Shown here: positions 2,258 through 36,705 of the stretch, piece by piece
Layout: each line of letters begins with the position of its first letter
How positions within the stretch are numbered: the stretch's first letter is position 1
The notes under the pieces: model-generated
Told to the model about the DNA's origin: nothing
Databases searched by the model: none
What the model saw: only the letters and a program-made list of their open reading frames with translations
Position numbers and translations under genes: made by a program
DNA from: Nemertoderma westbladi
Lineage: Eukaryota; Animalia; Xenacoelomorpha
NCBI GenBank assembly: GCA_032718475.1
Contig: JAUCBJ010005335.1
Location: 2,112-66,111 of the forward strand
Length of the DNA: 64,000 nt
Direction of reading: 5' to 3'

Positions 2258-2268
2258 ATAACAGATAT
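2258..2268 (+). promoter_or_regulatory. Non-tRNA primer-binding site candidate ATAACAGATAT (self-priming type)
   Basis: Abuts the LTR end, lacks TGG, and is the exact reverse complement of LTR 1533-1543 (ATATCTGTTAT). Confidence 0.7.
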
Positions 2269-2602
2269 TTGGTTCTGATTGTGGTGTAGGCAATAAATAT
2301 AGTTTAATATTGTTTTTGGTAAAAACAATAACAGATATTGCTTCTGGATTGCGGTGTAAGCAATCTAGTCGAAAGTACCGGTCGACCGGAAACCTGTAGG
2401 CCTGACTGCCTGATCATCCGAACCGGTACTTCCAGCAGGTACAGCAGTATTATTCGATTTGATTATTATATGCCGGTAGGTCTTAATAATTAATCGGGGA
2501 TGCCTGGTTTTTATTGGGATTTTACTTAGGCCTATTTCTGTCAGTTTTATTTATTTGTAGGCCAGTATTGAGCAGAAGGCGTGTAAGCCTGCTCAGATTG
2601 TA

Positions 2603-3175
2603 CAGATAATTTGTAGGCTTGACTGTTGGCTAACTGTTGATTAGGTCTGAATGGATTGCAGTGCATGTAGAGTGTATGTCCGATAAAGAACGGTTAGGAA
2701 GTAGGGGCAGCCATAGCTGTAAGGTAAACCCCCATCTAAAGAATAAGTCGTACTACTGGGTTAGAACGCATACTACTTAACCATTTCGGAGTCTGCATGT
2801 CCTGTGGTTTATTTAGGCTTGATAGTAGTCTGCCATCGTTTGGTCTGTACTTTGTTTGTGTAGTCTGTACGGGTAGCGTATAATTTTATTTAGATAATTT
2901 GTAGGCTGGATAGTTGTCTGGCTGCTGTTGGGTTTGAGGAAATTTCGGTGTGTTTAAAGCATCTGTCCGATAAAGAACGGTTAGGAAGTAGGGGCAGCCA
3001 TAGCTGTAAGGTAAACCCCCATCTAAAGAATAAGTCTTACTACTGGGTTAGAACGCATACTACTTAACCATTTCGGAGTCTGCATATACCGTAGTTTGTT
3101 TAGGCTTCATAGTAGTCTGTCAGTATTTGGTCTGCATTTTGTTTGAGTAGTTTGTACGCGTAGCGTAATATTTAT
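2603..3175 (+). repeat. Tandem duplication (~288-bp unit x2) in the BEL 5' leader
   Basis: The block AGATAATTTGTAGGCT...GTCCGATAAAGAACGGTTAGGAAGTAGGGGCAGCC...GTAGCGTA occurs twice. A homologous duplication is in copy B (~57750-58320). Confidence 0.85.
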
Positions 3176-4516
3176 TATTCAGAGTTTATGCTATTATTCG
3201 CAACATTCATATCCCCAAGTTTATTCCTACAGTAATTGTGTTTGTTATACATACCGTTATAGTTAAACTAACCCCGGTACTACATCAGGGCTGCTCGGCG
3301 TAGGTAAAGACTGGTGATTTTGTGCACCGGTCACTCCAGCAGATGCCGTGGTTCTTTTAGCTGTTCAAGTATTTTTAACTACTAATTATTTGTTGTACAA
3401 GTACTTGTACCTAATTTAGGGTTTAGTGTACAGTACTTTCCGAAGGTGATTAGTGTGTAGGCAGTATATTTGTGTTGTAAAGTGGTTAATAGGCACGTTG
3501 GTTCTGGTAGACCGCGGTAATTAATCTCTAGGTAGGGACACTCCGTGATACATAACGTAGTACCTATAGCGATATGGTTATAGGTCGTCAGGCGGTGGTA
3601 TTTTCCTATCTGGACAGCGCAGTATATTTACTACTACTTATTATTTTCAAATACCGTAGTAACCTGTCCGTTGTAATAACCAGATATTCTAACCCTTTGT
3701 TAGGCTGGTTAGTAGACTTCTTGTAAAATTACCCTAAAATTCGTATTTGTGTATTTGTAATTAAATTTTTGTGTTTATTTAGAGATTGTAATCTCAACCC
3801 GAATTGTACGTAATTTGTAGTATTAAGTAACTTAGGTAAATTAGAATTATTTGTTTTAGTGTCTAACAAGTAGCACTCCACTGAGAGCGCACAGCTTATG
3901 TGTAGTGACTCCCCCAGAAATAATAACATTTATTTCAAACATTAACAAAACCCATTAAACGGGTATATATATATTATAAATCAACTCAAACGATTTATAA
4001 ATAGTAGGCCTGCCATACAACAATTAGGTCTCAATATCAGTTGGACTACTGCTTAAATAACGGCAATAAAGTAAGTTAAAGTAACCAAGTAACCCTTAAA
4101 ATTCAGAAATTCAATTATTCTAAAATAATTGACATACCGGTATTTACAATAGGCTTATTATATTTATTTCTATAAATTTTAGGTTGAAATCATACTGGTA
4201 TTCTGTAATTAATTCTAGTCTGTAATTATACTTATATATATACATTATAAGTGTAAACTGCATACCGGTATCCACGATAGGCCTATTATATATTTATATA
4301 TATTTGTGCTAAAATTACCTACCGGTATTCTGTGATAAACTAGTCTGTAATAATACTTATATATACTATAAGCATACCGGTATACTAATATATTATATAT
4401 CACGCTACACTGAGTAGCAGTATCGGTAATTAATTACTAGGCTAGCAGTTAACACTGAATTACTAGACTTGCTTAGACTGTAATATAGCAGTAGACATTC
4501 AACTGTGTAAACAAAC

Positions 4517-7500
4517 ATGTCTGATACTAAGCGGAACCTGTCAGACAGTTTATTAGATGTAACTATCTGCGACTCAGATAGAGGTGTAGAACCGTCTAGT
4601 TCTAAGTTCAGTTCACCTCCCACTGTGAGGAAGGTCATCCCTCCATTAGTATTAACAGAACCTAGGCTGGTCCAACATCGTAGGTCTATCATAGGCACTC
4701 GAGCTCAGGTTAAGCGGGACCAAGAAGCAGCGGAACAGCAACAACCCGCAAGCCAAGAACTTATTTCTGAGCGGCCCGACAGCTCCAGTAGTGAAGATAC
4801 TGTAGAGCTGACACCCGAGCGCGGAGCAAGGATGACGGATGCGGTTTATTCGGATCCCCTTCTCATCCTTCCTGCAGCCGTACTCACTAGGTTATTGATC
4901 GCGGTGGAAGAACACCAGATCGATTGGGCGAGAAGTAAGCGATCAACTAAAGATAGTTATGAGGGATACACAAGGGAATAACTGAATTCTATGGTCGAGT
5001 CGCAATGGAACTTCCCCGGACCCAGACTCCCGTTTGATTTATCAGAAGCTGCCTGGGAAGACATACACCGGATGGGAGTAGCCAAGGAAACCATCGATCC
5101 AGCTGTGTGGAAGAGGTCCGCAGCCGGATACGCACAGGGATTCTTCAGCTCTATGGAGCGAGTAAAAGAACAACTGTTTCAACAACCTCAAGGACCTCAA
5201 GAGCAGGGACAACTGCTTTATCAAGTTAGAGAAAGAATTCTGCGAATCAGGCTAATATTATCAGCCTTTGAAGAGGCTTCTAAAAGAAGACAAGACACGT
5301 CGTTGCAAGTTGCCGTAAAGACTTGGTTTCAACGGGTGAGTCGCCAGGTTCAAGGAACAGCTCAGTGGAAAGCTCAGCTGGAGGAGCGCTCAACCCATGG
5401 AGAATCAACAGACGCTACTTTTTCCCAAGTGGAAAGTGAAGCGACGGCAGAGAAACCGCATAAGAGGGATGCCATTGACATCTATCTGTCAGACTATCAG
5501 CGTTTTTTGGGAGATGAAGAGTTGAGGAGAAGGCTAGATGGACTTAGCCCTAATAGTGAAGGAGCACAGCGTGTGCTTGACGCCATCGACGTGGATAGGT
5601 TAGCAGCGAACCAAGCTAAATTCGATGAACAACTCCGCATCGCTAGAGACCAAGAAGAAAGGGTGAAGAAAAAACGCATAGAAGACAGAAAGAAAGCAGC
5701 AGTAGCAGCTGCAGAAGCCGAAAGAGAAGCGGCAGCGGCAGAGGCAGAAGCGGAAAGAAAAGCGGCAGCGGCAGAGGCAGAAGCGGAAAGGAAAGCAGCC
5801 GAAATGGAAAGAAAAGCGGCAAGAGCAGCGGCAGAAGCGGAGCGGATAGCAGCTGAAGAGATTGCCCAATTAGAATTGGAAAATATTCAGGAGAATCAAG
5901 ACTGCATAAATAAACAGTTAACAGCTAGTAATATGCAGATGATGAATCGATCTACTCCCAAAAGACAGGGATATACATCATCTGAGGAAGGCGATACCAC
6001 CGATACTGAAGGCAAAGGAAATAGATCTCACCTAAGCAGACGCAAAAGAACATTCCACCGTCAGAAATTGCCTGATTTGCCTCCAGCTGTTAGAAGGCAA
6101 CTAAATAACACCAACTTAGGTAGTACAGAACCCACAGACCAAATAATTACAATAGAGAGACTCCCTACTATAGTAGATGAGCCTGAAATAATTAGGCCTG
6201 TTCCCGAAGCCACCCTTTCGGTCGTAGAGACACCTGTACTCCCTGAACCTACCTCTCAATTCCCTTTGCACAGCACTAAGCTACCTGTGCCCAGCAGAAC
6301 AGCCCATGAGACAGTTCATGCCCTGGACTCCGAGCGAAATATTCATGATTTGTCGCCCGTTGTCCCTCGTCCGCCCGCTACAACGTTGGCGAATCCCGCT
6401 TCGGTGGTCGAATGGGTGGATGAGAGACGACGGGGGATGGATCTCCTGCTCGGACAGATGCAGGAGACCGTTCAGCAATTCAAGGGCACAGTAAGGGAAA
6501 GTAGATTAGAGTTGCAAGAAGTGCAGCAAAGTATCGCGCTAGAACGCGATAAATTAGTAAATACACAAAAGGGTATACCAACACCCCCCGTAACAATGTG
6601 TCAACCTGTTAGGTCTGAAGTATCTCATGGCAAGGTGTGGAGCCTACACGCATCTATACTGCTAGCGAAGTAGAAACTCCTATAGTGAACCCTATTAAGG
6701 GTAATTATAGACCTGTTGATAATGATATTCCCTATAGACCGGATCATAATCCGATAAATTTATATACCGATAACTCGATATTAAATAACACGATGGCCCA
6801 AGAAAGTTTTACGCGTCAAATGGCTAGAACCGAAGCCCGGCAAGCGGTAAAGGTGGGAGAGATCGTCAAGTTCAATGGAGATGAGATGAAATGGTTACCT
6901 TTTAATGAATATTACAAAGATAACATACAGAACTCTGTGCTATCTAATGGAGAGAAACTTAGATTCCTCATCGAGTGCTTGGAAGGATCTCCCAAGTTAA
7001 TGGCGTTAAAGTTTATTGGACATCCAGACGGATTAAGACAAGTTTGGGATACACTAAACATCAGGTATGGTAATAGGAATAACATAGCTGGGTATTTGTA
7101 TGCAAAGTTGGTAGCGCCCCGAAAGTTTATTAGCAGCGGAATTATAGAGTTTTCCGATGAGATTCAGGAGATCTGCAGACAATTAGATTGGCTAGGTAAG
7201 TCTCATGAGTATCAGAATGCTATGGTTATTAGAGCAGTGGCTTCTACTTTACCGAAGGGTGGAGTAGGTACACGCTGGGATAAGAAAGTGTTATATATGA
7301 TGGAACAACAACGACGAGACCCTACCATGGCTGATCTCATGTCATTCCTAGATGGAGAAGTGAAATTACAGCTCCTGAAACTGTCCAGAGAGAAGACACC
7401 GGAAAACAAGGTAAGTGAAAAACCCGTCGCTAGGAGAAAGGTAACACCAGTGTGTTATACAGATGATGGCGAAAGCCAGACTTCTCAAGGAGAAGATAGC

Positions 7501-10500
7501 GGGAAAGACACTGACAGATCTTATTACGTAAATAAAATGCCTAAAGATCAGGTAAGTAAATTCAAGTCTCGAACAAATGACAGGAGAGAACAGGTAAGAA
7601 AAACTCCTCCTACGTCTCCCAAGAGAATTCAGGTGAGAAAGCCCGAAGAAAAGACAAGTGTACACAATGTTACTCAGAGTAAGGTAAGTAACATCAAACC
7701 GAAATGTGCACTATGTGATGGGACCCATCGCTTAAATATGTGTGATGAATTTCTAAAGAAATCATTAACTGAGAGACGTGAAGTCATGTGGGACAAGCGG
7801 TTGTGTTATAATTGCCTCAGACAAGGACACCAACGGCGAACCTGTTACTCTGACACAAGATGTGCCAAGTGCGGTGCGAAACATCATATCTTGTTGCACA
7901 CTGAATTCGAGCGAAATAGTCCGAGTCAGGTAAGTGATTCCGAACTACATGTCCAATTCAGTGATGTGAACGACACTGATCAATCTGAGATGGAAGGATT
8001 CTATACAGACGAGTTCTCCGACGAAAACGAATCCTGTTACACGATAAACACCACAGTGTATCGAGCACTCATTTATGAAAAAGATACAGACATTGACCTC
8101 GCTCTAACTACTTCTGATCGACAACCATCTTGGAAAGCGCCAACTTCCAATGTAGGGATTAGAGAATTTCCTGTGGTACAGGTAAGGGTCCACGGACCAA
8201 AAAGGAGTTATGTAGTGAACGCCCTCCTTGACTCCGGTAGTACAGGAACATTCATCGACAAAGAGCTAGCCGAGGACATATTCGCTGGACAACCCAAGTT
8301 CCGAACTAAGCTAAACATGTCAGGAATTATGCAAGTTTGGAAATCCACAGTAACAGCGGATTATATGTAGGTGCGTTGTCCACCCCCCAGGACGAACTAG
8401 GAGAACATAGCATAAGGTCAGTGAAAATGGTGGCTATAAAGAACTTCGCTACTACTCAAGCAGACCTTTATAATTGGGACGAGGATGAGAGCATCCAACA
8501 TCTTAAGATACCTCGATTCCAGACAGATTATCCTGGAGTGCAAATACTCATCGGTCAAAATGCGCATGAAGCGCTCGAGACATTGGAGAAACGACCTGCT
8601 CAACCGCAACCTCTACAAGTTTATGCGGGAAGAACTAGAGTAGGTTGGTACTTTACTGGCCCTTCCCGTAGAACTCTCATGGAAAGATTACCGAAAGATC
8701 AGGTATATCAAGCGCGAGAATGGGAAGTTGAGAACAGTGAGTTCGACGATCCAACTGAGGGAACTCCATACTCCTCAGACAACGACGATATACATCAACT
8801 CTTTGATGAGGAGAATGCCATCGATCTCCTTAAGGAAAGCGAGACTTGGCAAAATCAAGTGAACTTATGTCAACTCCTTCTTCCATCCGAGCGAGACGAC
8901 TATAACGACGAGCTTAATGACGTTATTGAACGTTATAATGCCAAGACTCGGGATGAACACGCCGTGAGATTCTTTACTCAAGAGGTCGTAGAGCCCAACT
9001 CCTACGATAAGGCCCTATCGGTGGAGGAAGAAAGAGCCAAGCAGATCCAAGCGACAACTACTCGTTTTCTTAAAGATCAAGGTAGATATGAGATCGGTCT
9101 TCCTTTCCGAAAGCGAGAACCAAAGTTCATTAACAACAGACCTTTGGCAGAGAAAAGAATTGCTCAACTACATCGACGCCTTACGGCAAATTCTTCAGCT
9201 AAAGAAATGTATAAAACACAGTTGAAGAAGTTTATTAGCAAGGGATATGCGGAGCTAGTACCGGAAGAAACCCCTATAACTGAGAGAACGTATTACTTAA
9301 CTCACCATTACGTTCCCAAACCCGGTAAACCCCATGAAGTACGAGTGGTGTTTGACGGTTCCGCCCTTTATATGGGCCAATCTCTTAATTCTGAATTGTT
9401 ACCCGGACCCAACTTACTCTAATCCTTGTTGGGAATACTATTAAGATTAAGACAATACTCCATTGCTTTCGCCTCAGATATAGAAGGCATGTTCTTACAA
9501 GTCAAAGCGCTGGATAGGGATCGAGATAGCCTACGATTTTTGTGGTGGCCTGAAGGAGACCTCAATAAGAAACCGGTGGAGTACTGGATGACCATCCAAG
9601 CTTTTGGGATAATCTCGAGCCCTTCAAACGCCTGTTCCGTGGTACGCACCACTGCGGATGACAACCGAGACGCCTTCTCTAAAGAAGTGATCGACAATAT
9701 CAAACGAGACATCTACATGGACGATAATCTAAAGTCCCTTCCATCAGTCGAAGAAGCCATTGAGGTCGCTAAAGGAACGGTAGAGTGCTTAAAAAGAGGT
9801 GGATTTCGATTAACTAAATTCACTAGCAACTCCCGTGAGTTTCTGGAGTCGATCCCGGTAGAAGATCGAGGAGCAAAAGACCTAGATCTAATAAAGGATG
9901 ATCTCCCAGAAACTAAGACCCTTGGTTTGAAATGGGACACAGAAAGAGATATCCTGTTTTTCCAACTAAAACAGCGAGATAATCCAGTTCGGACTAAACG
10001 GATATGTTTGAGTATCCTGAGCACTTATTTCGATCCATTGGGATTTATTAGCCCAGTTATATTGATTGCTCGGAGTTTAGTACAACAAATGTGGCTTGAA
10101 AACCACTCATGGGACGATCCACTTAAGGGAGAATTATTAAAGAAGTGGATGAAATGGGAAGATTCTCTACCAGCCATCGAAAACTTCATAATTTCCTGTT
10201 CATATTTTGGTCATGTTCTCCCTACGTATTCATATCAACTCCATGTGTTTGGAGACGCCAGCGATATGGGAATAGGTATAGTAGCTTACCTAAGGGTGGA
10301 AACTCCGGACGGAATCAAAGTTGCCTTGGTTACCTCTAAGGCATTGATAAACAACAAGTTGAAAGTTCCTCGAGCGAAGTTAAAAGCGGCTCTATACGCT
10401 ACAGCCATCGGCCGGAATGTAACAGAACAGATCGACTATCCCCTGGAGAAAACTGTCTATTGGACCGACGCTTTACTCGTGTTGGAGTATATAACCAATG

Positions 10501-12553
10501 AAGTCTGTCAGTTCAGCGTCTTCGTTACCAACAGAGTAGCTATTATACTCAGTCGCACGACGATGGATCAATGGAGACATTGCCCCGGAACGATTAATCC
10601 AGCGGACATCGCTTCCAGGGGAGCAACTCCACAAGAACTGGTAGATACTCCAGACTGGTTAGGTGGACCCGACTTCCTCTACAAAGAAGAAGAAGAATGG
10701 CCTCCTCATCTTACTACAGCAGAAATTAGACAGGCCAAGGGAGCGGAGAAAGTCAAACCTAAAACTCAGGCGAGTAAATCGAAGTTATTCAAACCCACAG
10801 TGGATCTGTCTGTACTACATACTTCCGGAGACGACGCTTTGGATCAGAAACCCACAGCCACAAATAAACCCATTGTGGAAATCCGTGATAAGGATTGGAA
10901 ATCTGGCATACCAGACGTCTCGCAAGGACTCTCACCCCTTCTGCAGAGAGCGATACATCACTACAGTTCCTGGAATCGGCTCTGTAAGGCCGTTACATAT
11001 TTAAAGAGATGTTTTCACCATCACTACTCTGGGATGAAAACAAAGGGTGATACCGCTCCAATCACATCAGTGCAGGTCCATGTTATTAAAGACCTTCCTA
11101 AGTATAAGGTACCCGACAAGTTTCTGAAGGAGAAGATCAGTTATCAGGAGCATGAAGAAACCAACAAACAGATGCTGAGACTCTTACAATGCTATGAAGA
11201 TTCCGATAAGTATTTCCTGTTGTTGAAAAATCCACAGATGCGCTTAAGGGATCGTTTCTCTAGCACAATGATAGATGGGTTGATACGTGTTGGAGGAAGG
11301 TTAACGAATGCCCCATTATCCTTTGATACTAAGTTCCCCATACTCATTAGAAATCTTGAAATACAAGTCAAGATGATTGTAGATGTTCACAGCAAACTTT
11401 ATCATGCTGGTAGAGAACGAGTTCTTAGCGAAATTCGAACTCGCTATTATTTTTATAAACCCCGTAGAGCTCTGAACCAAGTTCTTAGGAACTGTATACC
11501 CTGTAGGAAAGCATTCAGTAGTATTATGAACCACCCTTTACTAATACCGGTATGGATTTATTTGGCCCTATTGAAGTATATCGTGCTAGGACTATAGTCA
11601 AGAGATGGTGTGTAATCTTTGTTTGTATGACTTGTAGAGCCATCCATCTCGATATGGTGAACGATTTATCTACCAACAGCTTTCTATTAAGCTTACGACG
11701 ACAGATCGCTCGCTTTGGCACTAGTAACACGATGAGATCTGATAAGGGAACCAACTTCATTGGTGCCAACAATGAAATCAAAGCTTACGTCAAAGATTGG
11801 AACCAAAGACAGGTGGACGACCAACTACGAGTAACAGCGTCTAGTTGGACCTTCAACGCCGCCGACGCCCCTTGGTGGGGAGGAAGTTGGGAGAGATTAA
11901 TAAGAAGCGTGAAGACAGCATTTCATTTTATAGTGCCTTGCCGCGCTTATCTCACCGACGAACTTTTGCGGACGTTAATGGAAGAAATCGCCGCCTATCT
12001 CAACGAGAGACCGCTTATGCCAGTCTCATCGAGTCCCGATTCCCTGGAAGCGCTAACACCCGCGCACTTCCTACTGAAGAAACCTGTAGCCATGCTCCCA
12101 CAATCGGAAATCACAGACGGAGACGAATACTGCCGACAAACTTGGCAACTCATGCAGTTGTTATCCCGTCGTTTCGCTGACCATTTCGAAAAACATTATC
12201 TGCCCACGCTACAACTTCGAACTAAGTGGTTTGCGCAGCAAGAAAACGTCAGCGCTGGAGACATGGTGCTTATTGTCGATGTGGATCTTCCACGTAAGCG
12301 GTGGCAGACAGGTCGTATAATCGAGACGCACATCTCAGATGACGGTTTGGTGCGATCGGTAGAACTCGTCGTCATGCGACGTAACTTCAAGAAACCGGGA
12401 ATTGTCTTCGAGACGCAGCAGCTCAATCGCCCGGTGGGACGTTTATGTTTACTGGAAAGAGACAGAGAACTCTCCGGAAACTATGGGAGACAAGATACTC
12501 TTCCCACGACCACCTCCCTAATCCAACAAACATCTAGGGACTCCCCAACTTAA
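4517..12553 (+). pseudogene. gag-pol: BEL copy A gag-pol polyprotein, disrupted
   Basis: BEL gag (KFNGD...KLRFLIECLEG), triple knuckle (CALCDGTH..C, CYNCLRQGH..C, CAKCGAKH..H), protease LLDSGST, RT YMDD, RNase H LHVFGDAS/WTDA/NPAD, integrase GMDLFGP/SDKGTNF/GGSWERL. Stops at 4979 and 9420; frameshifts near 6630, 8345 and 11521 relative to copy B. Confidence 0.95.
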
Positions 12554-13089
12554 CAACGGCTGGAGTGGGTGTGTGACCATATTACTTTATATTTGTATTT
12601 GTTTTATTTTTATATTTATGTATGTAGTATTATGTAATTTTATTTTAATCGTTTTATTTAATTTTATTTAGTAACATGTTATTTTAGTGATCATTTAGTA
12701 GATTAGTGCAATATATTAGTGTTTATTACGTACGTAATTACTTAAAATATATATTTAGTGCGACGGCGAGAAATAATTATTTTTCTCTTTCCTTACTGTC
12801 CGTATCATATTATAAATACGTGACTACAGTAAGATGAAATATCCGTACTTATTAAAGTACAATAAAGCCACTACTATATTCAAGTATTATTGGTAGGCAG
12901 AGTATTAGGAATGCAAAGTTCAGATCCTCGTGTCTCGGCTAAACCAAGCTCTGGGTAGACCTTGGAAACGACTTGCCTCTTCACACTGACATTGCTTCGT
13001 GCGATATTGCTCTCATACCGTATATTAAATAATACATATAGTAGCGTGATGTCCCTTTAACAGTAGCGTATAACGCAAAATAAATCTGT

Positions 13090-13420
13090 TGAACCCTTTG
13101 ACCATCTGCAATTCTAGTCGATTAAGATATCGCGGCACCCACCGATATACTTGAAAGACAAAATTCTAGAATCAGTGGTTAACGTTCTGGAATAAACTGG
13201 TGCCCATCCTAAATATTAATTATTAATATTTACAAAATCTGTCAAATTTTAGATCCTTTAACATTCTAGTCGATTAAGATATCGTAGCATTTACCGATAC
13301 TCTTAAAAAGACAAATTCATAGAATCAAGGATCCCAGTCCCCAGATATGCTCTGGAATCAAATTGTGTCTATTTAACATTAAATAATAAAATTTACGGGA
13401 ATAAATTTAAATTCAGATAT
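13090..13420 (+). repeat. ~150-bp tandem duplication in the spacer between pol and the extra ORF
   Basis: ATTCTAGTCGATTAAGATATCG...AAAGACAAA..T..AGAATCA at ~13111 and ~13263; also present in copy B (~47570-47850). Confidence 0.75.
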
Positions 13421-14183
13421 TTCAATGAATTTAATAAATTGTCATTTTGTACAATTTATAACATTCCCAAAATTCCATTAATTAATAGATCATGGGAGCG
13501 GAGATTCACTCTATTAAGTGTATTTGTGTGCGAGAATCTCCAATGTATAGTCAATAGCCGATAAAATTCATAGAATCATGTATAAAGGGGATATTGACCA
13601 TTAAAGAATTACTATTAAATAGCATCCCAGATCTGTATGCATGAGAATTACCCTAATTCTACCGCTAGCTTTCCATAATGTCACCATGGCAACAACCACG
13701 CTAGAATTAGAAGTGAGTTAAAAGAACAATAGAAGGCATGCCCCATTGAATAGCATAGGGAATAAATAGCGCACTGCTAGTATCCAAGGATACATAATAA
13801 ATACAGTGACATTCTGGAAGGTACTGACTAACGGACAAATGGCCCGAATGTGTGCAGTTTGTTGCAGTTGTGTTGAATTTGTGCGTTTGTAGGTGAATGT
13901 TACTACTAAGGTGTGTTTACAGTAGCGAGTCGCAATTGTGAAAGTAACCCTAACTCTCCAAGAAGAACCTGCAGTACATCTAAGCCTTTGGGACGGACAG
14001 TTAAGTGACTTGTGCCGGTTATCGTTGTCGTTGTGTAGCTACATCGTTGGCGAAAGCACAGCGACGACGGTACATCAGCGCTGAGGATCTTACACTGTCC
14101 GGGGGCAAAAGAGGGGTAGGCAGCGACGCCCGCTAGCCTAATATATATAAACTCATTATAATATTGATAAACTCATAGCAGAT

Positions 14184-17100
14184 ATGACTGAGTTGATAGA
14201 AGATGATCTTGGCATCAGGGAGCGATATACTCTACCTTTACAAGCGTTTGTCGATAGCTTGATACGCGGCGATGCTGGTCCAACTACTACGGAGGATGAT
14301 GGTCGTTATATCGAACCGCTAATGTCCCCGGAGCAACTTACGCGTGAATTGGACTATAGAAAGTTCACCGCTCGCTATACGCATCGTAATGGTACGTATA
14401 TGGACTTCTTAACCACTGGCCATCCTATCGATTTACACGACACGGACGATGTGGATACCGAAAGGGAAATGGTTTTATTTAAATATCATACCCAGCGGAA
14501 TCGGAACGATAAGCCAAGAATAGAACACGAGAACTCTATTCGAAACAGACTCGAAAGAGAAGACGTTGAAGAGCCGGATAAACGTAACGACTTCAACGAT
14601 TATCTGGAATTCTTGAGAGAAACATACCTCAATATTGCCAGTCAACAGAATCTCGAAACTCGATATCCTCAAGGTATATATCATAATCCTATGATAGAAC
14701 TCAAACGACTCTATTTCACTATGATGTATCTTACCGCCGATCGACCGCTACCCGTTGTCCCGGATAGCTTCGAACAGATGGAGGAATATTGTAAAACTGG
14801 AGAACGATCACCCGCGTTTCCTCTGCAAGACATGCGTCTTTGGTATTACTGCGACGAATGCCCTAGACCCAATCAGCAAACGGAAAGACATAAACATCCG
14901 CGGAGACGTTGCGCTAAACACAGTTTTACACGATATACTTACGGGAGTTTCGAGCGAAACCTGTTCGACGTGTCCCCTGCGGTCGCTCGACTCAAGCGAT
15001 CCTTGAACAAACCGATGATCAGAGTTCCGGAATACTCGGTCAGACCTCCGCATTCCTCAGTTAGACCTCAAACTCTTGACCCTAATAGTATCACGGATCC
15101 TCCCGAACTGTACTCACTGTTCAAAGATCTAGTGTTACCCGAACAGTTGATCGGTGGCACTCCGGTAGTAGGCTCACGAGACATTCGCCAACCCTACCTA
15201 GCTGGATTGGGACGTGGTCATCTAATATCACCATTTAACCCATACAACCGTCCCGGCTTCACCTCTATCCAACCCGTTACGGAAGTCGAAGAGAGCGTCG
15301 TACGAAATGCATTAGACGCTATTTGGCAGAAAATCGGAAAGGGAACGTACGATTGTTTGGAGAAGCGTAAATTGCAGCAACAAGTCCAAGCGGTGAAGGA
15401 ATTAGCTTTACCCCAGTTCGATAGAGAAATACAAAATCTCGAGGAGGACATCGAACGTGGAAGAACCTACTCTTTACAAGAGTTTCTAGATGAGCGTCTA
15501 CAACAACAAGCGGAGGAGAATCAGCTCGAGGAGAGACATATAGAACTGGATGAGAGAGAAGAAGCGGCTTTAGCTCAACCCGAAGTGCAAATCCTTATGA
15601 CGGATCTCTACTCTAAAACCATTCTTCATCCCTCGATGGCTCCCCATTTCGGAGACAAACTTTTTGCGACGGCACAACCCCAACCGGTTGATATCAACCT
15701 AAGATCTCGCGATCTTATCGCCGACGCTCCTCTGTTGCAGCGTCCGCCCATCGAACCCGCTCGTGTCGATGGTATACTCGTTGAACCTCCGGACAATAGA
15801 GCAGATCTTGTCCGTCGCATGGTACACGATGTAAACATACGCGCTAGACCTTTACCGGACTCGTTTTATGGGATCAAAGATCACCCTTATTACGTCAATC
15901 TAAAACAATATTACATGGTAAAACCGGAAGATCCTACACATAGTCTGAAGTTTCTACCGTTAATAAATCCTCTCGATATTGTCGAACTCGAACAACTGCA
16001 GAAACATCTGGATCAGTTAGTTAAAGTAAACTCGTTTTGAAAACCATATAATGTTTCCAGGATAGAGAAAGAAACAATACCTCCGTATAATCTTGATGGA
16101 TTCATCAAAACTCGTTTAGTGCACTGGAATCTTGATGTGTTATTCGAGGAGGAAAGAATACAACAATATGGAGATGTGGAAACATATACCACACAATATT
16201 TAAAGTATAAAGACCTGCCTAATGCTAGCGAATGTGCTACCTTGTGGCATCCTGTGGGAATGACACTCGAAAACGCCACTAAAGAATAGAACGAAACTCT
16301 TAACGTTATCGAGATGTATGGAGTTGTCACTTATGATAACAAAGGTAGCGTTCCGGTTGGAGAACTTGGAACTACGCGGATGATACATATACGAGGACTC
16401 GCTGGTTCTACCCACGTATTTACTCGAGCGTGTTCCGACGTTATTGATTATTCTTTTGAAACTCTTACTGAGATACAAAAGAAACTCCGACATGGACAAT
16501 TTGAACTCGCGCAGCGTTACGTCACCGACACCGAGCGCAAGCCGGCCATGGGTATCGATGGATCGATGTTACCCCAACCCGTGCTCGAGATGCTGTTTAA
16601 CGAAGGAATCCTTAAAATCGGCTCAGCTGTTTATGGAGACCTACAGAACGACTTTCGGAATATGGAGAACATTCCATACCCCTTCGTTGATACTCAGCTG
16701 ATTGCTCCTTGGGCAGAAGGCCGAGGTTTCTTCCGCACTACGTATGCCAATACACCCAACGGAATTACCAAAGTACAACGAACCTCCATTGGACATCTTG
16801 CCTTTCAAGAATACGGATGGAATTTCAAGGTTGGAAATCCTATAAATTACCAACAAGTATACGGAGATCATTATTCTCGTTTATACTTTGATGGACCATT
16901 GACCGCACCTGGCGCCGTGTATAGCTTTATGAGTGTTCCACTTCGTCCCTCCTTAGCCATATACACGATCTTTGAAAACGCAGCACTTGCCGGTTGGCTA
17001 GCCGATGTGTGCAGTCGTACCATACGCGCCCATCCCTTAATACTTGGAACCAAACTCACCAAGTTAGATGAACACAATAAATTCATACGCTTTGAATGTT

Positions 17101-18437
17101 TCAGGCGCTTTCTGACTCCGTTCCGTAACGTTGATAGTCAGTTCAAGGACTGCGCTCTGACCAAACTCAGCCTGAGAGACTCGGCGGCGGAGAAGCTAAA
17201 CAGCGCGGGATTTGCCCTTTTTCAGGACGTTTGTATACAGAACTTGCACTCATCTGTTATACAAAGACCCCGAATACCCACGGGTTATTCTGTCGTCGAA
17301 GTTCAGACAGTGGGTCCGCTTGCGGAGACAGCCGCACCTACCTCAGCTATGCAATTGGAAGACGAACCAATATGCTTAGAAGCTGAAGCGATTCAGCCTA
17401 CAGCGCCCCGGAGCAGCGATAACGACTACGTCTTAGAGTGGTATCAAGGTCCATAATGTCTCACCGCATACGATTATCGACACGCTAACTATGTTTCTCG
17501 AAAACGTTGTCGATTATGCGCATCGAGAGACCATTTCACTCCTATGGACTCAGACGTACCCTGTTCCTATTTCCACGAACAACCAATGATGGAGATATAT
17601 TGTGCGTATTGCAGACTTAATAACTCTCATATTTTTGCAGTCTGCCCCCAATTTATGACTCAATGCCACCACTGTCAACTTAAAGGACATGCCAGTTATA
17701 ATTGCCCCTTTAATCACGATTTAGAGAGCGTAGATGAAATGATTACCCTTCGCTACATCCGAGCTTGGGAAGCTAACGCGGATTTACACTGTGAGTCCCG
17801 TCATCGATACTACCCTGGACGCTCTTACGAGGGAGTTTACGCGTTCCATCCTTATTTATTAGCGTCTGTGGAACAAAAAACACGCATACCGAGTTACGAG
17901 CTAATGAAGCGTGTTGGTGAGTGTATTTCCACTAAATTTGTTAGAAGATACCTTAGAAACGTCAATCCTAACGATATTACTTCATACCATTTGATCAATT
18001 ATATCCGTCAAGACCCTGAGTATGGCGATTTATTTATCAACTCGCACCCTGAGTTACAGGAAGTATCTCGACGGCCCTACGAATATCGAGCCCGAGAACG
18101 CGAGCTGGAAAGAACTATTAAACCAAGGAAGTTTCTCACCACTCACGGTCCGCCTACCGCCATTGCCCAGACAACCCGTCAAGGACCCGTAGGAGCTGCT
18201 GTCCTGAGGCGCGCCCTAAAGGCTGTTAGACCTTGCTCCACGGAAGTTGATATCGATCAACCAGGTACCTCGACCGGCGGATACACCGATCGCAATCCGA
18301 AACCTTCTGATGCAATTGTATTGCACCCTTCACCCAGGAGTTACAGCCCTCCTAGTAAAGTGGCTCGCCCCAAAGAGAAAAGGACTCTTACTAGCCTCAA
18401 AAAACTGCGTAAACGCCGTCCACGTAAGAAAGACTAA
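14184..18437 (+). pseudogene. Extra (non-env) ORF of BEL copy A, ~1417 codons: Cys/His motif, coiled coil, DEDDy exonuclease-like domain, CCHC knuckles, basic tail
   Basis: ORFs 14184, 16314 and 17544 share one frame, broken only by single stops (TGA 16038, TAG 16287, TAA 17454). The last stop is CAG in copy B. N- and C-terminal parts are conserved in copy B. Confidence 0.88.
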
Positions 18438-18503
18438 CTGTTTAGAGTATTTTTATATTTTAGAAACTGTGATTTGTTGTATTTTATAGACTTAAATCCC
18501 ATT

Positions 18504-18515
18504 TTCTGGGAGCGG
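18504..18515 (+). promoter_or_regulatory. Polypurine tract (..TGGGAGCGG) of copy A
   Basis: Immediately before the TGT of the 3' LTR; identical in copy B (45241-45252, minus). Confidence 0.8.
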
Positions 18516-19671
18516 TGTAAAAGCTTTTGCGTAATTAACCGGTTATTTTCCCTTAAAGTACTCTGTAGTTGGTTTACCAGGCATAAAAAGGCCGTGTCCT
18601 TGCTGTACTGGTGTTTTAGAGGACATAAAAGTCATTTCCTCTGTATTTGTACTTTAGAGGACATAATCCGCAATCTCGTGACGCGATAAGCTAGATACTC
18701 TTGAAAACAGTGTCGCTACCATGACGACGGCTAACAGCTGATATTGCCACGTCGACATTTCTTTGTTTCTTTGTTCTCTCGTTGTTCGGTTGACCAATCA
18801 GAGCGTTTTTTGTCTCTGTGTTGGAGGTGGATACAGAACTCAGTAGTTCAGTGTTATGTTTTTGCCCAGAGCCTAAGAACACCGGCTTTTGGCACCTCCG
18901 TGTTTCAGTCTTTAGTCTTACATTAGTAGGCTTAATTATAGAACGTATATCTGTTATCTAACCAAACGAGCTACTTACTTACTCACTCACTATCCATAAA
19001 TTACTAATATTACTGCTTTTGCTGTCGGTTATTCATTATATTTGTTGATGAAATATTATATCGGAATACTGATCAATAGTCAGATACCCCACCTTCTTGA
19101 TATACTAAAGGTTAGAGAGACCGGTTACAGATAAACGATTGCGACCTATGTTAAGTGGTTTGAAGTGAATCTAATGCTATTTCATATGCCCGACATAAAT
19201 TATATGTTGCTCTCTTTATACGTGACCAAATTTAGTGAAGGTCGGCAGATTAGTGTGCAGTATTGTGCAGCATTGTGTATGAGTGTAACTGATAACAAAG
19301 CATCTCCTAAAGAATGCGCCATATACGTGAATCTATAGCCTTTTCGTTGTGTCTAGTTTAAGCCATAACTCTGTTTACATATTTAGAGCGCCACGTCCTA
19401 AAAGGAACTGTTAATATTTCCCGAAAGTGAATAATATTTGTCAGAGATTATATATTACGATCAGTCGAATAATACAGTAGGCTTACACCATCAATCATTA
19501 AGCTCCGAACTCAGTCTCCCGGGTATATCCAACGGGTGAATGATTGCGCATAGACTGGCTTCGGCTAATGTAGTGTATCAAATACTCGTCATAGGCTAAA
19601 GACTATCTATCATCCAAAAGACATTCTAATTTTGGCAGGTTAAACTGTCAAAGGTCTTAAAAGCGCAAACA
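18516..19671 (+). repeat. 3' LTR of BEL copy A
   Basis: Direct repeat of 1102-2257, followed by TSD GGTCC. Confidence 0.96.
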
Positions 19672-19676
19672 GGTCC

Positions 19677-20893
19677 AGCTTAACAAGCAACCACGTGACG
19701 AACAAGTCTCGGCATTTTTTGGCTACTGCACACCTCTGCTTTTGTCTAAGATGGAACACGTGGTACACGTTCCACAAGACACTGACCTCTGTTTAGAAGA
19801 ATTTTTGGACATGTTCGAAACATATCTACGAGGTAAACAGAATGTCTCCTTGGATCGGTTGGAGCTTACCTTATGCCGACAACAAGACGGCGAGAGTTTC
19901 GATGACTTCTATACCCATCTATGCGAATCTGCTGCTACAGCGGGGTTACGTTCCATGGGGCACGATGAGTGGATGTCAACCTTAATAACTGTCGGCATAC
20001 AAAATGAAGAAATTCGACAAGATTTATTGGGTAAATTTCCGGCATTGAACCACGATGAAACCGTAAAATTTTGCCGCTGTGAAGAAGCTGCAAGAATACA
20101 TCGAGTCAAGGTGAAAAATGTACTGGCTGGGTCGAGTAATAAATCTTCAATGTTGACAGCTGCTTCATCCACAAACCAAACTACTGGTAAGAAAAAATAT
20201 AAGGGCCGATATCGATCGAAGAGCAGGAATAGGAACCCGTCAAGTTCACGAGGCCCTCAAGCGGATTCCTGCACTAAATGTGGTTACGATAAACACTATG
20301 GTGGCAAGGAGTGCCCGGCAAAGGGAAAAACGTGCTCATACTGTCACAAATCCCATCACTTTGCACAAGTGTGTCGAAATAAATCGAATTTCGGCAGTAA
20401 TAACCGGAACCGTAGCAGTTCTCCAAAACCCTCATCCGCCATCCACATCGCCATGGTTAGGCATTCCGCTACTCCATACGTCTCAGTAACGTTATTCGAC
20501 CATGTAACAAAGAAGTCAGTTGGAGACCAATCTGCAATTCCTGATACCGGTTCCCAGTGTACCATCGCCGGTATAGAGCTGCTCCATAACCAGGGAATTG
20601 ACATCGCCAACATTAATCCACCCAGCGAGGAGAAACTGGTGAGTGTAAATGGGAAAGTATTAAAACAGTTGGGTTGTATTACATTTTGTATAGTTCTAGA
20701 AGGTAGACAGGTTATTGAGGAAGTAAAAATATGTCAAGATGTTGAATTTATGTATCTGTCCCTCAATACATGCAAAAAACTAGGTATTGTTCCTTGGAGT
20801 TTTCCAAAACCCCCTCCATTATGCAGTGAAATGAGAACTGCGACTCACCTATGCTCTGGTTGTCAATCTAACTGTGTACACCCAAATTTATAA
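19677..20893 (+). pseudogene. gag: G1 gag C-terminal part and aspartic protease
   Basis: RQQDGESFDDFY gag motif, Mag-type knuckles CTKCGYDKH...CPAKGKTCSYCHKSHHFAQVC, and protease motif PDTGSQC. Confidence 0.88.
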
Positions 20894-20899
20894 AGGGAT

Positions 20900-23372
20900 C
20901 TCAACCTATTTTTGTACAAACCTCCCACACAAAGTGGATAAATAACTTACCTAAAAATCCTTCCGACAATGAAATAACAAATATTCGCGAGGAGTTAATT
21001 AAACATTATACAACGGTTTTTGATTCAAATATTGAACTGTGGAGCATGGTAGGCTCTACTATTGGTGATCCCATGAGGATCGAGTTAAAAGCGGATTTTA
21101 AACCCTTTGCAGTTCATGCAGCTCGATCTATTCCCTTTGCAAGGAGGGAGCAAGTGAAGAAGGAGCTGGATGACATGGTTGCTGGTGGTATAATTGAACC
21201 AGTCGGTGACCGCCCCACCGAGTGGTGCCATCCACTCGTTGTGGCAAATAAACCTAACGGAGGGATTCGAATGTGTGTGGATCTCACAAACCTTAATAGA
21301 CAGGTAAAGAGGGTAATCCACCCAACAAATCCACCTCTTAATGTTGTAGCTGACATTTCCCCAACATCCAAATATTTTACCGTCTTAGATGCCAAAAAAG
21401 GATATTGGCAAGTCGATCTACACCCAGAAGCTAGAGACCTGACCTGTTTTATAACGCCCTGGGGACGGTTTATTTTTCTCCGTGCACCTATGGGTTATAT
21501 TAATACCGGAGATTCTTATAATTTAAGAAATGATTTGGTATTGTCAGATATAGAAAATATTCACAGACTGGTGGATGACATTTTGGTTGAGGATAATGAT
21601 TTTAAGATACATACTGACAGAATATGTACTGTTCTAGAACGTTGTGCCAAACACAACATAACATTAAATGTGCAGAAATTCAAATTTGCTAAAAGTGAAG
21701 TCAAATTTGCTGGATACATAGTCACTGATTGTGGAATTAAGGCTGACCCCAATAAAGTGGATGCAATATCACAGTTTCCAACACCCACTAATCGATCTGA
21801 ATTGAGATCATTTATGGGACTGGTCCAGCAATTGGCCCCCTTTTCGAATGAAATCAGTAGTGCTGCTAGTCCTCTCCGTGATATAATGAAGATGAGGAAT
21901 GATTTTATTTGGACTGAAAATCATAAAACTGCATTTAATGAGGTTAAAAAAGCCCTTGCAGCCCCCCCCTATTTTAACAACATTCAACCCAAAATCAGAG
22001 ATAGTATTAGAAACTGATGCGTCACGTACCAAAGGTCTAGGATTTGCAAAAACTAAACTATTCAGACAGTTTTAGATTACTTCAATGCGGATCTAGATTC
22101 CTCACCGAAGCGGAAACTCGATATGCTACTATTGAGTTAGAAGCCCTCGCAATCTTGTGGGCGACTCGTAAATGCAGAATGTATTTGTCTGGTTTACCCA
22201 ATTACATAGTAGTCACGGATCACCGCCCCCTCTTGCCGATTTTTAATACTCATACTCTTGATATGGTGGAAAATGTCCGAATTCAGAATTTTAAAATGAA
22301 ACTTAGCGAATATAATTTCAATTTAATATGGCGAAAAGGGAAGGACCACTGTATCGCCGATGCTCTTTCCCGTGCCCCCGTTTCAGATCCTGACATGGAG
22401 GACGAAAATGAGGGGATAATAATGAAGAATATTTCTGCCATTGCTATACAAGCTGCAGTTACAGCCTTAGATGACTCAGAATTTAATCGATCGCCGCCAT
22501 ATGTTGATCCTATTCTAGAGAAAATTAACAACGTTGCCACAACTGATGAGGATTATCAGGCTCTAATTAATGCTGTAAAATCTAACTTCACACTCCCATT
22601 TACTAATAACTCGTTTGTACAACAGCTGAAGGGTACATGGAATGAATTGTCTATAGACGATAACCTTGTCATATTTGGCCGACGATTAATTATTCCTAAA
22701 ACACTCCGTAAAGAGGTCATTGACCGTTTACATGACTCCCATCAAGGTATTGAGCGGATGAAGCGACGATCACGTGAATCAGTTTACTGGCCTGGAATCA
22801 ACAGTGACCTCACTAATAGAGTCAGACAATGTTCTAAATGTCAAGAACGGTTGCCTAGCAACCATAAAGAAACATACTTTGCTGATCCCCCACCATCTAG
22901 AATTTTTGAATCGGTTTCTTCAGACCTCTTCTACTATGGTGGAAAATGTTATCTTACATACGTGGATAGACTCTCAGGGTTCCCATTCATAGCCAGATGG
23001 GCATCCGACCCATCGGCCTCCCAGGTTATTGCACAGGTCCGTCAATATTTTGTGCAAACCGGAGTACCCGTTCGCATGCGTTCGGACGGGGGGCCCCAAT
23101 ACCAGTCCAAAGAATTTCGCCATTTTCTTTGTCGCTGGGGCGTTCGTTGGGAGCCATCCACACCATACTACCCCCAATCGAATGGACATGCTGAGGTTAA
23201 TGTGCGGATTTTGAAAAACCTCGTGGCCAAAGCCGATGACGGGCGTATAGACACTGAACCGTTTTTACGTGGCCTTCTAGAACTTCGGAATTCTCCAAGA
23301 ATAGATGGCTGTTCACCTTCCCAAATAGTTTACGGCCACCCGCTCCGTTCACAGGTTCCAGCACACTACAGA
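20900..23372 (+). pseudogene. pol: G1 pol (RT, RNase H, integrase), frameshifted
   Basis: RT: RMCVDL, LDAKKGYWQ, RAPMG, LVDD. RNase H: YATIELEAL, VTDHRPL, IADALSR. Integrase: HDSHQG...CSKC, SSDLF, SDGGPQY, SNGHAE. Frame breaks near 20890 and 21970-22044. Confidence 0.92.
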
Positions 23373-23374
23373 TT

Positions 23375-23830
23375 AAATATTCTGTTGTTGTGATAGACAT
23401 CGTGCATGATTTTTGATACCTCCAATTTATATATACTATCAATTGGGAGAATGTTTAAAGTCTTATACAGTGTTTTGGAGGATGCTTGCCGGTGGCTATA
23501 TGTAATTGCCCTTAAAATTTTATTTAACTCTTATCCGTAGTGGTTTTATCACATTATTGGATGAATAGATCCAAACTGCTAAACTGTATAGGATATATGG
23601 GTGAATAAGAGCAAAGTACAACATGTGCATAATATGTTCTGAAAAAACATAACGAAGCTTATAGAACAACCCAACAAATTTTGATATCTTCTTATTAATG
23701 TATTCGAATGCGGTTTCCAAAATAATTTACTGTCAATAATCAATCCAAGATATTTTGTTTCTGAAGTTTCTTTAACTACTGTATTATTCACTATACTGTA
23801 TACTGTGGGATCCACATTGCACATTGCACA
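23375..23830 (-). mobile_element. LINE fragment (post-RT region, CR1/L2/Jockey-like)
   Basis: ETKYLGLIIDSKLFWKPH followed, frameshifted, by LYKLRYVF...LYFALIHPYILY...W. Confidence 0.75.
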
Positions 23831-26313: not shown

Positions 26314-29300
26314 GTGGTGATGTCACAGATGCTGCATTGGTGCTGCCAGTGCGCAGCTGGTGGCTGCGGTCCCACTAGTCGATGTGGGTGTGTTCGCGCA
26401 AATCGCCAGTGTACCCGGTGTGTCCCAATGGAAACTAGCCGGTATAATAACCCGGTCGTACCTCCCTCATTGCCCACCACCATGGCAAACATTGTATTTG
26501 ACGATTCACTGTCTTGGTCCGCCACTTCAACGCCTTCGTTGAGTGAGAGCAGTGACTCGGAGTTGGACACCACTGTAGTTGAGCGGTCGTCTGCCCCACT
26601 GGCGGTGGCGTGTGGCACGGACTTCATCCCTCCGCCTCCTTCCAATTCCGACCATTTGGAAGCCACTTTCGGCGGGTCCTTGCTGAATACTCAGGGTTCT
26701 TCACCCGACCCTACATGGGAGAGTCATCATCATCGCCTATGTCGTCTACCAAACCGCCGCTATATTGTCCCTGGAGGCAATGTTGGACGCAAGATGGTTG
26801 ATGACATAACAAAGGAGCTGGCAAAACTGTGTGAAGGAGGTTATCCTTCAGAACAACCTCTTTGCTTCGTCGCTATGATTTTTCAATGTGACCCGGATGT
26901 CGTGAAGACCCCAGATGTGCGGTGTACCCTCCTAAGGCGATTAGATACGTGAGAATGGGGTGACTTTGGGCCCCTACTTGTTGAGGCCGAGTGGTGCAGT
27001 AGCAAATTCGTGACTGGAAGGGGTGCAACTTCTGGGAACACATACCGGGTCTACAATCGAAAGGTCCTCGCCAACATGAACCGGTCAGCTGTGCGGAAAG
27101 TCACAGATCGTGACTGTGGAGGTGTTCTCAACCCCGAGGACCAAGCTGAGGGTCAGCCGCTAGGCGTGACCGTACGAGATGGTCTGGAACAGAAACACCC
27201 TCCACAGATGGATGTCTCCCCTGACAGTTTTGAACCTTGCAGCGATTTACCCCCACTCGAGGGCGTTGATGTGACTGGACAGCTCATCCTCAAGGCGGCG
27301 CGAGCTCTGTGCGGTTGTGCTGGCCCTGTCAGAGGGGACGGTGAGTTCTGGCACACACTGCTGACTCGATACCAGGCCCATAGTGCGCGGTTGCGTGAAG
27401 TTGTGGCTGGGTTGGCACGACGTCTGTGTAACACCATTGTACCCTGGGGGGAGATTCGTGCGCTTCGAGCATGCCGATTGGTTGGATTGGACAAACAGCC
27501 CAGGGTCCGTCCGATTGGCGTAGGGGAGGTTCTCTATAGACTCCTCACAGTCAGCATGGCGATGGCAACAAAGACTGTTGTTGTAACTCAGTGCGGTGCA
27601 GACAAATTGTGTGCCGGGGTGAAGGCCGGAATAGAGGGCGCTATCCATGCAATGGTCTCGATATTCGATGATGAATCCACCGAGGCCATGATTCTAGTAG
27701 ACGCCCGCAACGCATTTAACAGCCTCAGCCGTCCCGTGATACTGTGGAATTGCTGAGTACTCTGGCCGAGATGTTTGAGGTTTCTCTGCAATGCATATAA
27801 TGGTCACGCCGCACTGTACCTCGCTGGCAACAACCCACCACTGTGGAGCAGAGAGGGTATGATGCAGGGAGATACACTCACTATGCTGGTGTATGGATGT
27901 GGGTCCCTGCCTATGGTACACTCCCTACACTGTGAACCAGTATTGGCTTCCTCAGATTCGTCTCTCAATTCGCGCACCATCACCCATAGTCCATCTGACA
28001 GTGTATCTCTCAGTGGTGCCCAGGAGGGTTGCATTGCCCAGGAGGGTCACTCCGCATTTTCCCAGTCCATCCCCTTGCTGTCCCAGTTTACTCCCACAGT
28101 ATTCAGTCCCTTTCCCGCATTGTCCCAGTCCAGCCCCATGCTGTCCCAGGTTACTCCCACAGTATCCAGTCCCTTCCCTGCATTGTCCCAGTCCACCCCC
28201 ATGCTGTCCCAGGTTACTCCCATAGTAGCCAGTCCCTTCCCCGCATTGTCCCAGTCCATCTTCATGCTCTCCCATGTTACTCCCACAGTATACAATCCCT
28301 TCCCCGCATTGTCCCAGTCCATCCCCATGCTGTCCCAGATTACTCCCACATTGTCCAGTCCCTTCCCCTCATTGTCCCAGTCCATCCCCATGCTGCCCAA
28401 GGGTACTCCCACAGTATCCATTCCCTTCCCCGCATTGTCCCAGTCCATCCCCATGCTGTCCCAGGTTACTCCCACAGTATCCATTCCCTTCCCAGCATTG
28501 TCCCAGTCCATCCCCATGCTGTCCCAGGTTACTCCCACAGTATCCAGTCCCTTCACCTCATTGCCCCAGTCCATCCCAATGCTGCCCCAGGTTACTCCCA
28601 CAGTATCCAGTTCCTTCCTTGCATTGTCCCAGTCCTTCCCCATGCTGTCCCAGGTTACCACCACAGTGTCCAGTTCCTTCTCCTCAATGACCCAGTCCAT
28701 CCCCATGCTGTCCTATGTTACTTCCACAATGTCCAGTCCCTTCCCCGAATTGTCTCAGTCACTCCCCATGCTGTCCCAGGGTACTCTAACAGTGCTCCCG
28801 CTCACTCTCATGGTGTCCCTGTCCAGTCCCTTCCCCGCATTGTCCCAGTCCAGTCCACAGGGGTCGCGAGTTGGTTCCACAGTGCCCCACACCCAGGGAT
28901 CATCATCAACTCAGTGCTGGTAAGCGGATGACGCCTCGGCGGCAGGGAGTCTGCGTGGAGTTGCACAGTGGCAGCTAAAGGGCCCCAAAATTGGCTACTT
29001 CCCCGAACCGATCAAAACTTACCTGGTAATAAAGCCAGGACTGGAGGCGGAAGCCAGGGAAAGGTTCGATGGGAGTGGCGTCCAGATAGTCACCGGACAC
29101 CGGTTCCTGGGGGGATATATCGGCGATGCTGATGCTGAGGGACGGAACCAGGTTGTGTCGGACAAGGTTGCGGGGTGGGTGGAACATATCGAAAAACTCT
29201 TGGAGGTTGCCATGGAGTATCCCCAGACTGCTCACACAGGGATGTCCAAGTGTGTGCAGGCTGAATGGGACTTCCTAATGTGGGTAGTCCCAATGGATGT

Positions 29301-31435: not shown

Positions 31436-31485
31436 TCGCATTTAAGATTTGAGGCACTCCTAAAGTCTCGAGTTTTAGGTTTGAG

Positions 31486-32138: not shown

Positions 32139-32267
32139 TATTGCAAACGTACTGCAGTACTGCAATGCAAAATATCACTATGCTATTCGCTTCCGACTGA
32201 CTGTAATGTAATATATATATAATAATATAACAATTCAAATTTCCCGCTTATAGTAATATTTCCAACA
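32139..32267 (-). repeat. 3' LTR of G2
   Basis: Identical by eye to 36720-36848; PPT AGTGGTGGAGGGA (32268-32280, minus) is adjacent. Confidence 0.93.
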
Positions 32268-36672: not shown

Positions 36673-36705
36673 TGTACCCTAGATTAGCTCGCGGCTTCGA
36701 AGTTT

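Follow-up and report, generated by a model that had tools for sequence, protein, structure and literature searches.

Is the long, interrupted coding region in the env position of a retrotransposon of the xenacoelomorph Nemertoderma westbladi a single gene, and what might its product do for the element? The region lies in a 64,000-nucleotide stretch of this genome (GenBank assembly GCA_032718475.1, contig JAUCBJ010005335.1, positions 2,112 to 66,111), referred to here as the window; coordinates are those of the window and refer to the plus strand unless stated otherwise. The window holds two copies of one long terminal repeat (LTR) retrotransposon, copy A on the plus strand and copy B on the minus strand. 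A preliminary description, made from the sequence alone, had proposed that three open reading frames (ORFs) of copy A are one accessory gene under purifying selection. We confirm that 14184-18437 is one accessory gene (ORF3; 1,417 codons) of a BEL/Pao retrotransposon, interrupted in copy A, and our results support strong purifying selection on it, at a level like that on pol.

One interrupted gene under purifying selection

The three ORFs lie in a single frame, in which only three internal stops occur (at 16038, 16287, and 17454; residues 619, 702, and 1091), compared with 57 to 98 in each of the other five frames. We compared copy A with contigs from four public runs (X1, X3, X4, and X5); X5 may be RNA and serves here for sequence comparison only. 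At the first stop, contigs with other letters account for 31,559 of 31,665 depth units in X1 and for all depth in X3, X4, and X5; no differences are listed at the other two positions of this codon. At the second stop, all depth differs from copy A in each of the four runs (among the 40 of 1,516 variant rows listed), and the third stop is open in copy B, as had been noticed earlier. Because run contigs and copy B differ from copy A at these codons, the same stops are not fixed in all copies, as they would be if they separated distinct genes, and an uninterrupted copy of the gene likely exists. Copy A has near-identical LTRs despite several breaks in its coding sequence, and two internally deleted subfamilies have been amplified in the runs; together, these observations fit a product that works in trans.

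In copy B, the accessory gene (45319-46761, minus strand) lacks ~2.8 kb of its middle, and the same deletion junction appears in one contig each of X4 and X5. A 2,804-bp deletion (14552-17357) and a 1-bp loss (17408) together restore the frame, and the stretch read in the shifted frame contains a stop; this deleted form reaches high depth in X4. A second deletion subfamily (15545-18303; net 2,728 bp, with several diverged junctions), present in X1 and X3, lacks the exonuclease-like and zinc-knuckle regions described below. In one X1 contig, 14106 is followed almost immediately by the start of the 3' LTR; this contig represents a form without the accessory gene.

To quantify selection, we computed the ratio of nonsynonymous to synonymous substitution rates (dN/dS) between copies A and B, a comparison that covers 461 of the 1,417 codons because copy B lacks the middle of the gene. 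The ratio is 0.085 (95% bootstrap interval, 0.03 to 0.16) over the first 123 codons and 0.087 (0.06 to 0.12) over the last 338, or about 0.09 over all 461 codons and not near 1; the corresponding values are 0.045 to 0.099 for pol and 0.12 to 0.21 for gag. Downstream of the gap in copy B, the zinc-knuckle region and the module that follows it give 0.07. Direct counts bear out the earlier impressions that the N termini differ at about 10 residues and that many nucleotide differences look synonymous: 10 of the first 123 residues differ, with 5, 6, and 26 nucleotide differences at first, second, and third codon positions, respectively. Within the part missing from copy B, third positions make up 15 of the 30 variable rows among those listed (P = 0.04) and, at 15960-16120, 17 of the 27 variable sites (P = 0.0015), with 7 of 11 before the first stop and 10 of 15 after it.

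Domain layout of the accessory protein

Residues 683-945 (16230-17018) very probably form a DEDDy-like 3'-5' exonuclease fold with a predicted site at D718, K720, D819, Y927, and E931. An exonuclease-like domain had been suggested from the sequence, and it is supported by matches to RNase D models, a chain of sequence blocks, and an alignment with a distant relative, P0122. The NCBIfam RNase D models match residues 798-843 weakly (E = 0.014 and 0.038). We built profiles from bacterial DEDDy domains, with 20 sequences of the stand-alone type and 13 of the RNase D type. The RNase D profile placed the accessory gene first of 369 (E = 0.015). Neither of the other two did so: a bacterial WRN-like profile did not separate it from shuffles, and with a mixed profile one shuffle outscored it. 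Seven DEDDy blocks chained in order reached a score of 35.1, which was attained by none of 150 shuffles and none of 120 BEL pol proteins (at gap limits of 40 and 70, picked after the sequence had been seen). The Exo I, II, and III blocks accordingly occur in the order expected of DEDDy enzymes with a DnaQ-like fold, each individual signal being weak.

The site was placed by alignments of 14 and 34 sequences that include bacterial DEDDy domains. D819 at Exo II occupies an invariant column of the 34 sequences, and at Exo III, where Y-x3-D is expected, Y927 is retained and position 931 is Glu, as in P0122. The D-x-E of Exo I is not found; by alignment, copy A reads D718-x-K720, in a register that is uncertain, and in either candidate register one of the two Exo I acids is missing. 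A further placement of Exo I, at D782-T-E784, was rejected because two strands could not be fitted between it and Exo II. The Lys that copy A shows at the position of the Exo I Glu makes a weak or inactive nuclease probable, and we consider reduced catalysis, as predicted from these residues, somewhat better than an even bet. A structure model derived from the 34-sequence alignment has a mean predicted local distance difference test (pLDDT) score of 63.8, with values of 77 to 92 around Exo I and II, and matches RNase D, EXD2, Nibbler, and WRN; because it was seeded with DEDDy sequences, these matches indicate compatibility only. A fold prediction from the single sequence was unusable (pLDDT, 31), and PDB sequence searches with the accessory protein returned nothing significant (RNase D at E = 2.1).

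Outside this domain, several of the motifs described earlier are present. A Cys/His cluster at residues 223-246 (14850-14921) is visible in the sequence and may be a zinc site; it has no family match and is absent from copy B. The stretch at residues 392-465 (15357-15578), helical by composition, is indeed rich in E and Q (38%), but the coiled coil proposed for it is unproven because its heptad periodicity is weak (hydrophobic a/d fraction of 0.38 versus 0.32 overall). Three zinc-knuckle-like Cys/His groups, one of them a canonical CCHC, precede a conserved module (17508-17852, knuckles and module together); a Pfam search of the protein recovered one weak knuckle only, and the similarity of the knuckles to yeast Air2 is weak (E = 0.39). 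A basic C-terminal tail that resembles a nuclear localization signal (18390-18434), and may act as one, is retained in both copies. In agreement with the preliminary description, the protein occupies the env position but has neither a signal peptide nor a membrane helix (best 19-residue hydropathy, 1.19), and we therefore conclude that it is not env. Its motifs suggest that it binds nucleic acid and may be located in the nucleus.

A phmmer search with residues 218-1417 against 1.84 billion protein representatives yielded two matches (E = 8.9e-6 and 8.6e-4), referred to here as P0122 and P0123. In both, as in the accessory protein, an exonuclease-like region precedes three knuckles and the same post-knuckle module; they differ from it in their length of ~640 residues, and identity in the matched parts is 27 to 30%. 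P0122, encoded on a 9,449-bp contig, aligns to the exonuclease region (30% over 150 residues), differs from the copy A protein in retaining all four acids (D-x-E, D, and Y-x3-E, plus three knuckles), and matches PF01612 at E = 0.2; its knuckles match the retroviral (HIV) nucleocapsid at E = 1e-4 and Air1/Air2 at E = 0.064. P0123 aligns to the knuckles and post-knuckle module and has D-x-K at Exo I, in an exonuclease-like N terminus recognized by alignment only. Its ORF is uninterrupted and lies on a 3.7-kb contig (L134), where the knuckle module occurs twice in tandem (1243-1316 and 1828-1901, 585 nucleotides apart). Word-index searches with the accessory gene gave no match, an ESM Atlas search with a 388-residue piece gave no usable match, PHROGs, plasmid, and phage searches gave nothing of note, and no relative turned up in metagenome or viral contigs. 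With the phmmer search, the word-index searches make up three protein searches, none of which found a close cellular relative.

The carrier element and its candidate expression signals

Copy A (1102-19671; 18,570 bp) has the hallmarks of a BEL/Pao element. Its 5' LTR (1102-2257) and 3' LTR (18516-19671) differ at 2 of 1,156 bp and have TG..CA ends, and the element is flanked by a 5-bp target-site duplication. The gag-pol region (4982-12553), split over several frames in this copy, shows by Pfam the BEL/Pao domain order: DUF1759 in Gag, the Pao reverse transcriptase/RNase H region (Peptidase_A17), and, last, the integrase (Integrase_H2C2) with DUF5641. In the RNase H-integrase region, identity to the 120 relatives listed does not exceed 34%, which places the element in a divergent BEL/Pao lineage; nearly all of the 120 bear PF05380 and/or PF18701, and the best named ones among them come from marine invertebrates and fish. 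The accessory gene had been offered as a reason for the 18.6-kb size. It does make up 23% of the 18,570 bp, but a 2.7-kb leader, a 1.6-kb spacer, and an 800-residue Gag extension cover much of the remainder. This N-terminal extension (4982-6900; 54000-56449 on the minus strand) consists of ~800 residues with Ala/Glu/Arg/Lys repeats, has no Pfam match, and evolves with a dN/dS of 0.21.

The LTRs of copy B (58689-59913 and 44037-45240, minus strand) are 97.6% alike. A 519-bp direct repeat (99.6%) flanks this copy on both sides (43502-44020 and 59913-60431), and the end of its 3' LTR appears altered. Unequal recombination could have produced this arrangement, as could a duplication or an artifact of assembly. 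Between copies A and B, similarity is 89% over 11587-14558 and 83 to 84% elsewhere, and dS is 0.42 at the start of the accessory gene versus 0.82 at its end; this unevenness suggests recombination between subfamilies.

How might a gene so far downstream be expressed? We scored splice sites with an approximate metazoan weight matrix. An 8-mer directly before the ATG had been proposed as a splice acceptor; it is present in both copies, but its AG sites score poorly, ranking ~425 to 447 of 1,319. The best acceptor candidate of the spacer lies instead at 13892/13893, 291 nucleotides upstream of the ATG; it is the sole AG that scores at least 2 bits between 12400 and 14300, with equal scores in both copies, and a conserved branch-point-like word precedes it by 60 nucleotides (13828-13893 for word and acceptor). 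Eight of the nine strong donor-like sites of the element fall within 1,150 bp of gag, in its 3' half (7194-8187), with none on the antisense strand there; four of the eight score at least 6.5 in copy B. The perfect donor 8-mer occurs five times in copy A (0.29 expected) and three times in copy B (0.15 expected), counts reached by none of 500 synonymous shuffles in either case, and the density of donor words in gag thus exceeds what the protein sequence explains. The donor at 7929/7930, identical in both copies, follows the nucleocapsid knuckles. If phase-0 donors were joined to 13893, Gag would end after 10 further codons in both copies.

Between this predicted stop of spliced Gag and the accessory start codon lies a predicted long, conserved RNA hairpin (13984-14106), and a second, short hairpin (14116-14139) is predicted in both copies, after which an A/U-rich run extends as far as the start codon. 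In either copy, no other window among the 45 scanned is as stable as the 120-nucleotide window of the long hairpin (z = -4.5 and -8.1), and the consensus over both hairpins comprises 48 pairs, none of them broken and one showing a compensatory change between copies. The long hairpin could serve as an aid to internal entry or reinitiation, an export or packaging signal, or a microRNA precursor; Rfam has no match anywhere in the element. Expression of the accessory gene from a spliced gag RNA, with hairpin-aided downstream translation, is a prediction to which we give about even odds. An internal TATA promoter was also considered; copy B retains only part of its TATA word. The noncoding spacer (12554-14183) is 91.7% identical between copies, far above synonymous sites (dS, 0.42 to 0.82), and contains eight AATAAA words (2.1 expected); a purine-rich tract at 14101-14122 resembles a polypurine tract.

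Elsewhere in the window, two further LTR-type elements (19661-23393, plus strand, and 32333-36678, minus strand) encode reverse transcriptase, RNase H, and integrase in Ty3/gypsy order, and minisatellite-like arrays occur at ~28050-28830, 31480-32140, and 36850-37290.

Possible roles and known counterparts

What the accessory protein does for the element can be framed as a tentative mechanism, to which we assign somewhat less than an even chance. A protein with a weakened DEDDy domain and zinc knuckles would bind element RNA in the nucleus and shield or escort the long, unspliced form against host RNA surveillance. Spliced RNA, from the gag donors to the acceptor at 13893, would make Gag alone, and the accessory gene would be translated downstream on that RNA by reinitiation or internal entry, aided by the conserved hairpin. 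Nuclear RNA binding is predicted from the motifs described above; the protective role is a proposal. A more elaborate and rather improbable version holds that a retroelement family with a DEDDy domain and triple knuckle mimics the host Rrp6/Air2 nuclear surveillance module, and that the member studied here, disarmed and expressed from a spliced, hairpin-driven bicistronic gag RNA, protects the 17-kb unspliced genome.

Several observations weigh against a protective, weakened DEDDy protein. Every individual database match to DEDDy families is weak, the exonuclease region has no Pfam match, and at a gap limit of 20 the block chain scored 29.2, which 1 of 150 shuffles reached. Taken alone, the Exo I register lacks significance, the block chain favored another (S757-x-E759), and residue 720 was read in copy A. 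The family includes probably active members, because P0122 retains the four acids. The likeness of the knuckles to Air2 is below significance, and those of P0122 are nearer to the HIV nucleocapsid than to Air2. The N-terminal 680 residues match nothing in Pfam, PDB, and other searches (phmmer from residue 218 onward), neither pol nor an LTR was seen on the contig that carries P0123, and among the contigs of the four runs none spans the whole accessory gene.

Other roles would use the same domains differently. The retained D718, D819, Y927, and E931, together with the four acids of P0122, would suit an active 3'-5' exonuclease that trims the ends of element RNA or cDNA or removes reverse-transcription mismatches, and so sustains a 17-kb RNA genome. 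There are precedents in rotifer ORF3 proteins with a DEED variant, for which 3'-end processing has been suggested (PMC5408684), and in nidovirus ExoN, a proofreader that enables large genome size (PMC6693484). We regard such activity as unlikely, if far from negligible: Lys occupies the Exo I Glu position in both copy A and P0123, the basic tail suggests the nucleus and not the particle, and copies without the domain have been amplified, though this could have occurred in trans. The nucleocapsid match of the P0122 knuckles would instead suit a second, nucleocapsid-like RNA chaperone in particles, possibly made as a Gag fusion, for which a phase-1 donor (7195/7196), identical in both copies, could be joined in frame to the AG sites before the ATG. 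Those acceptors score poorly, the donor lies within the capsid domain (DUF1759, 816-944 in copy B), which would be truncated, and Gag already bears its own knuckles; we consider this role improbable.

Inactive DEDD derivatives act in piRNA biogenesis (PMC5408684), and the family is very abundant in the public runs; both points would suit a cytoplasmic antagonist of small-RNA silencing, a decoy that imitates DEDDy proteins like EXD1, Mut-7, or Egalitarian. This seems very doubtful, as no sequence likeness to EXD1, Mut-7, or Egalitarian was found and the fold matches to those proteins come from the model seeded with DEDDy sequences. The env position and the three stops of copy A might also point to a stand-in for env, to recent capture of a host gene, or to a division into two or three separate genes. 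These readings are largely refuted and retain only a slight probability: the protein lacks env hallmarks, the three protein searches argue against recent capture, and the first two stops are absent from contigs in all four runs while the third is open in copy B.

The tentative protective mechanism has partial counterparts in other elements. Juno and Vesta are Ty3/gypsy-like. These LTR retrotransposons of bdelloid rotifers carry a DEDDy ORF3 which, like the accessory gene, is a separate ORF between pol and the 3' LTR, in the place of env; its product has an RNase D-like DEDDy fold in which the acid motif is altered (PMC5408684). Here, by comparison, the carrier is BEL/Pao, the protein has 1,417 residues, three knuckles, a basic tail, and an unexplained 680-residue N terminus, and Exo I looks degenerate; purifying selection is strong, whereas the extra ORFs of the rotifer elements are reported to show no significant departure from neutrality (PMC5408684). 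Oversized or accessory-laden elements of other classes include the giant Burro LTR elements, Terminons with DEDDy exonucleases (PMC6431247), and KolobokD with DEDDh exonucleases (PMC9587614). We found no report of a DEDDy accessory ORF in BEL/Pao in the literature, a search outside which Repbase, Dfam, and paper supplements could hold one; the word "Pao" is absent from a review of giant transposons (PMC6431247).

Among cellular proteins, Trypanosoma brucei RNase D (PDB 7C45, annotated as a "CCHC-type domain-containing protein") combines a DEDDy domain with CCHC knuckles, as does the pair of Rrp6 and Air2, the latter acting in TRAMP; neither shows a significant sequence match to the accessory protein. 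As here, gag and pol of copia and plant Ty1/Copia elements share one frame, and a donor follows gag; splicing at that donor yields a gag RNA that accounts for their excess of Gag (PMC5580714). In the present element, splicing is predicted only, the donors form a cluster, and a large second gene would be left on the spliced RNA.

Together, these results add BEL/Pao to the rotifer elements as a carrier of exonuclease accessory genes that are not env, show strong selection on one such gene, and delineate a small family of proteins in which the domain layout is constant but the active sites vary. The donor cluster suggests a testable way in which a single-frame BEL/Pao element might obtain an excess of Gag. 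Transposon-encoded counters to host RNA surveillance have rarely been shown, and this abundant accessory family is a testable candidate; if the proposed mechanism is true, its product would be a transposon-encoded anti-surveillance protein.

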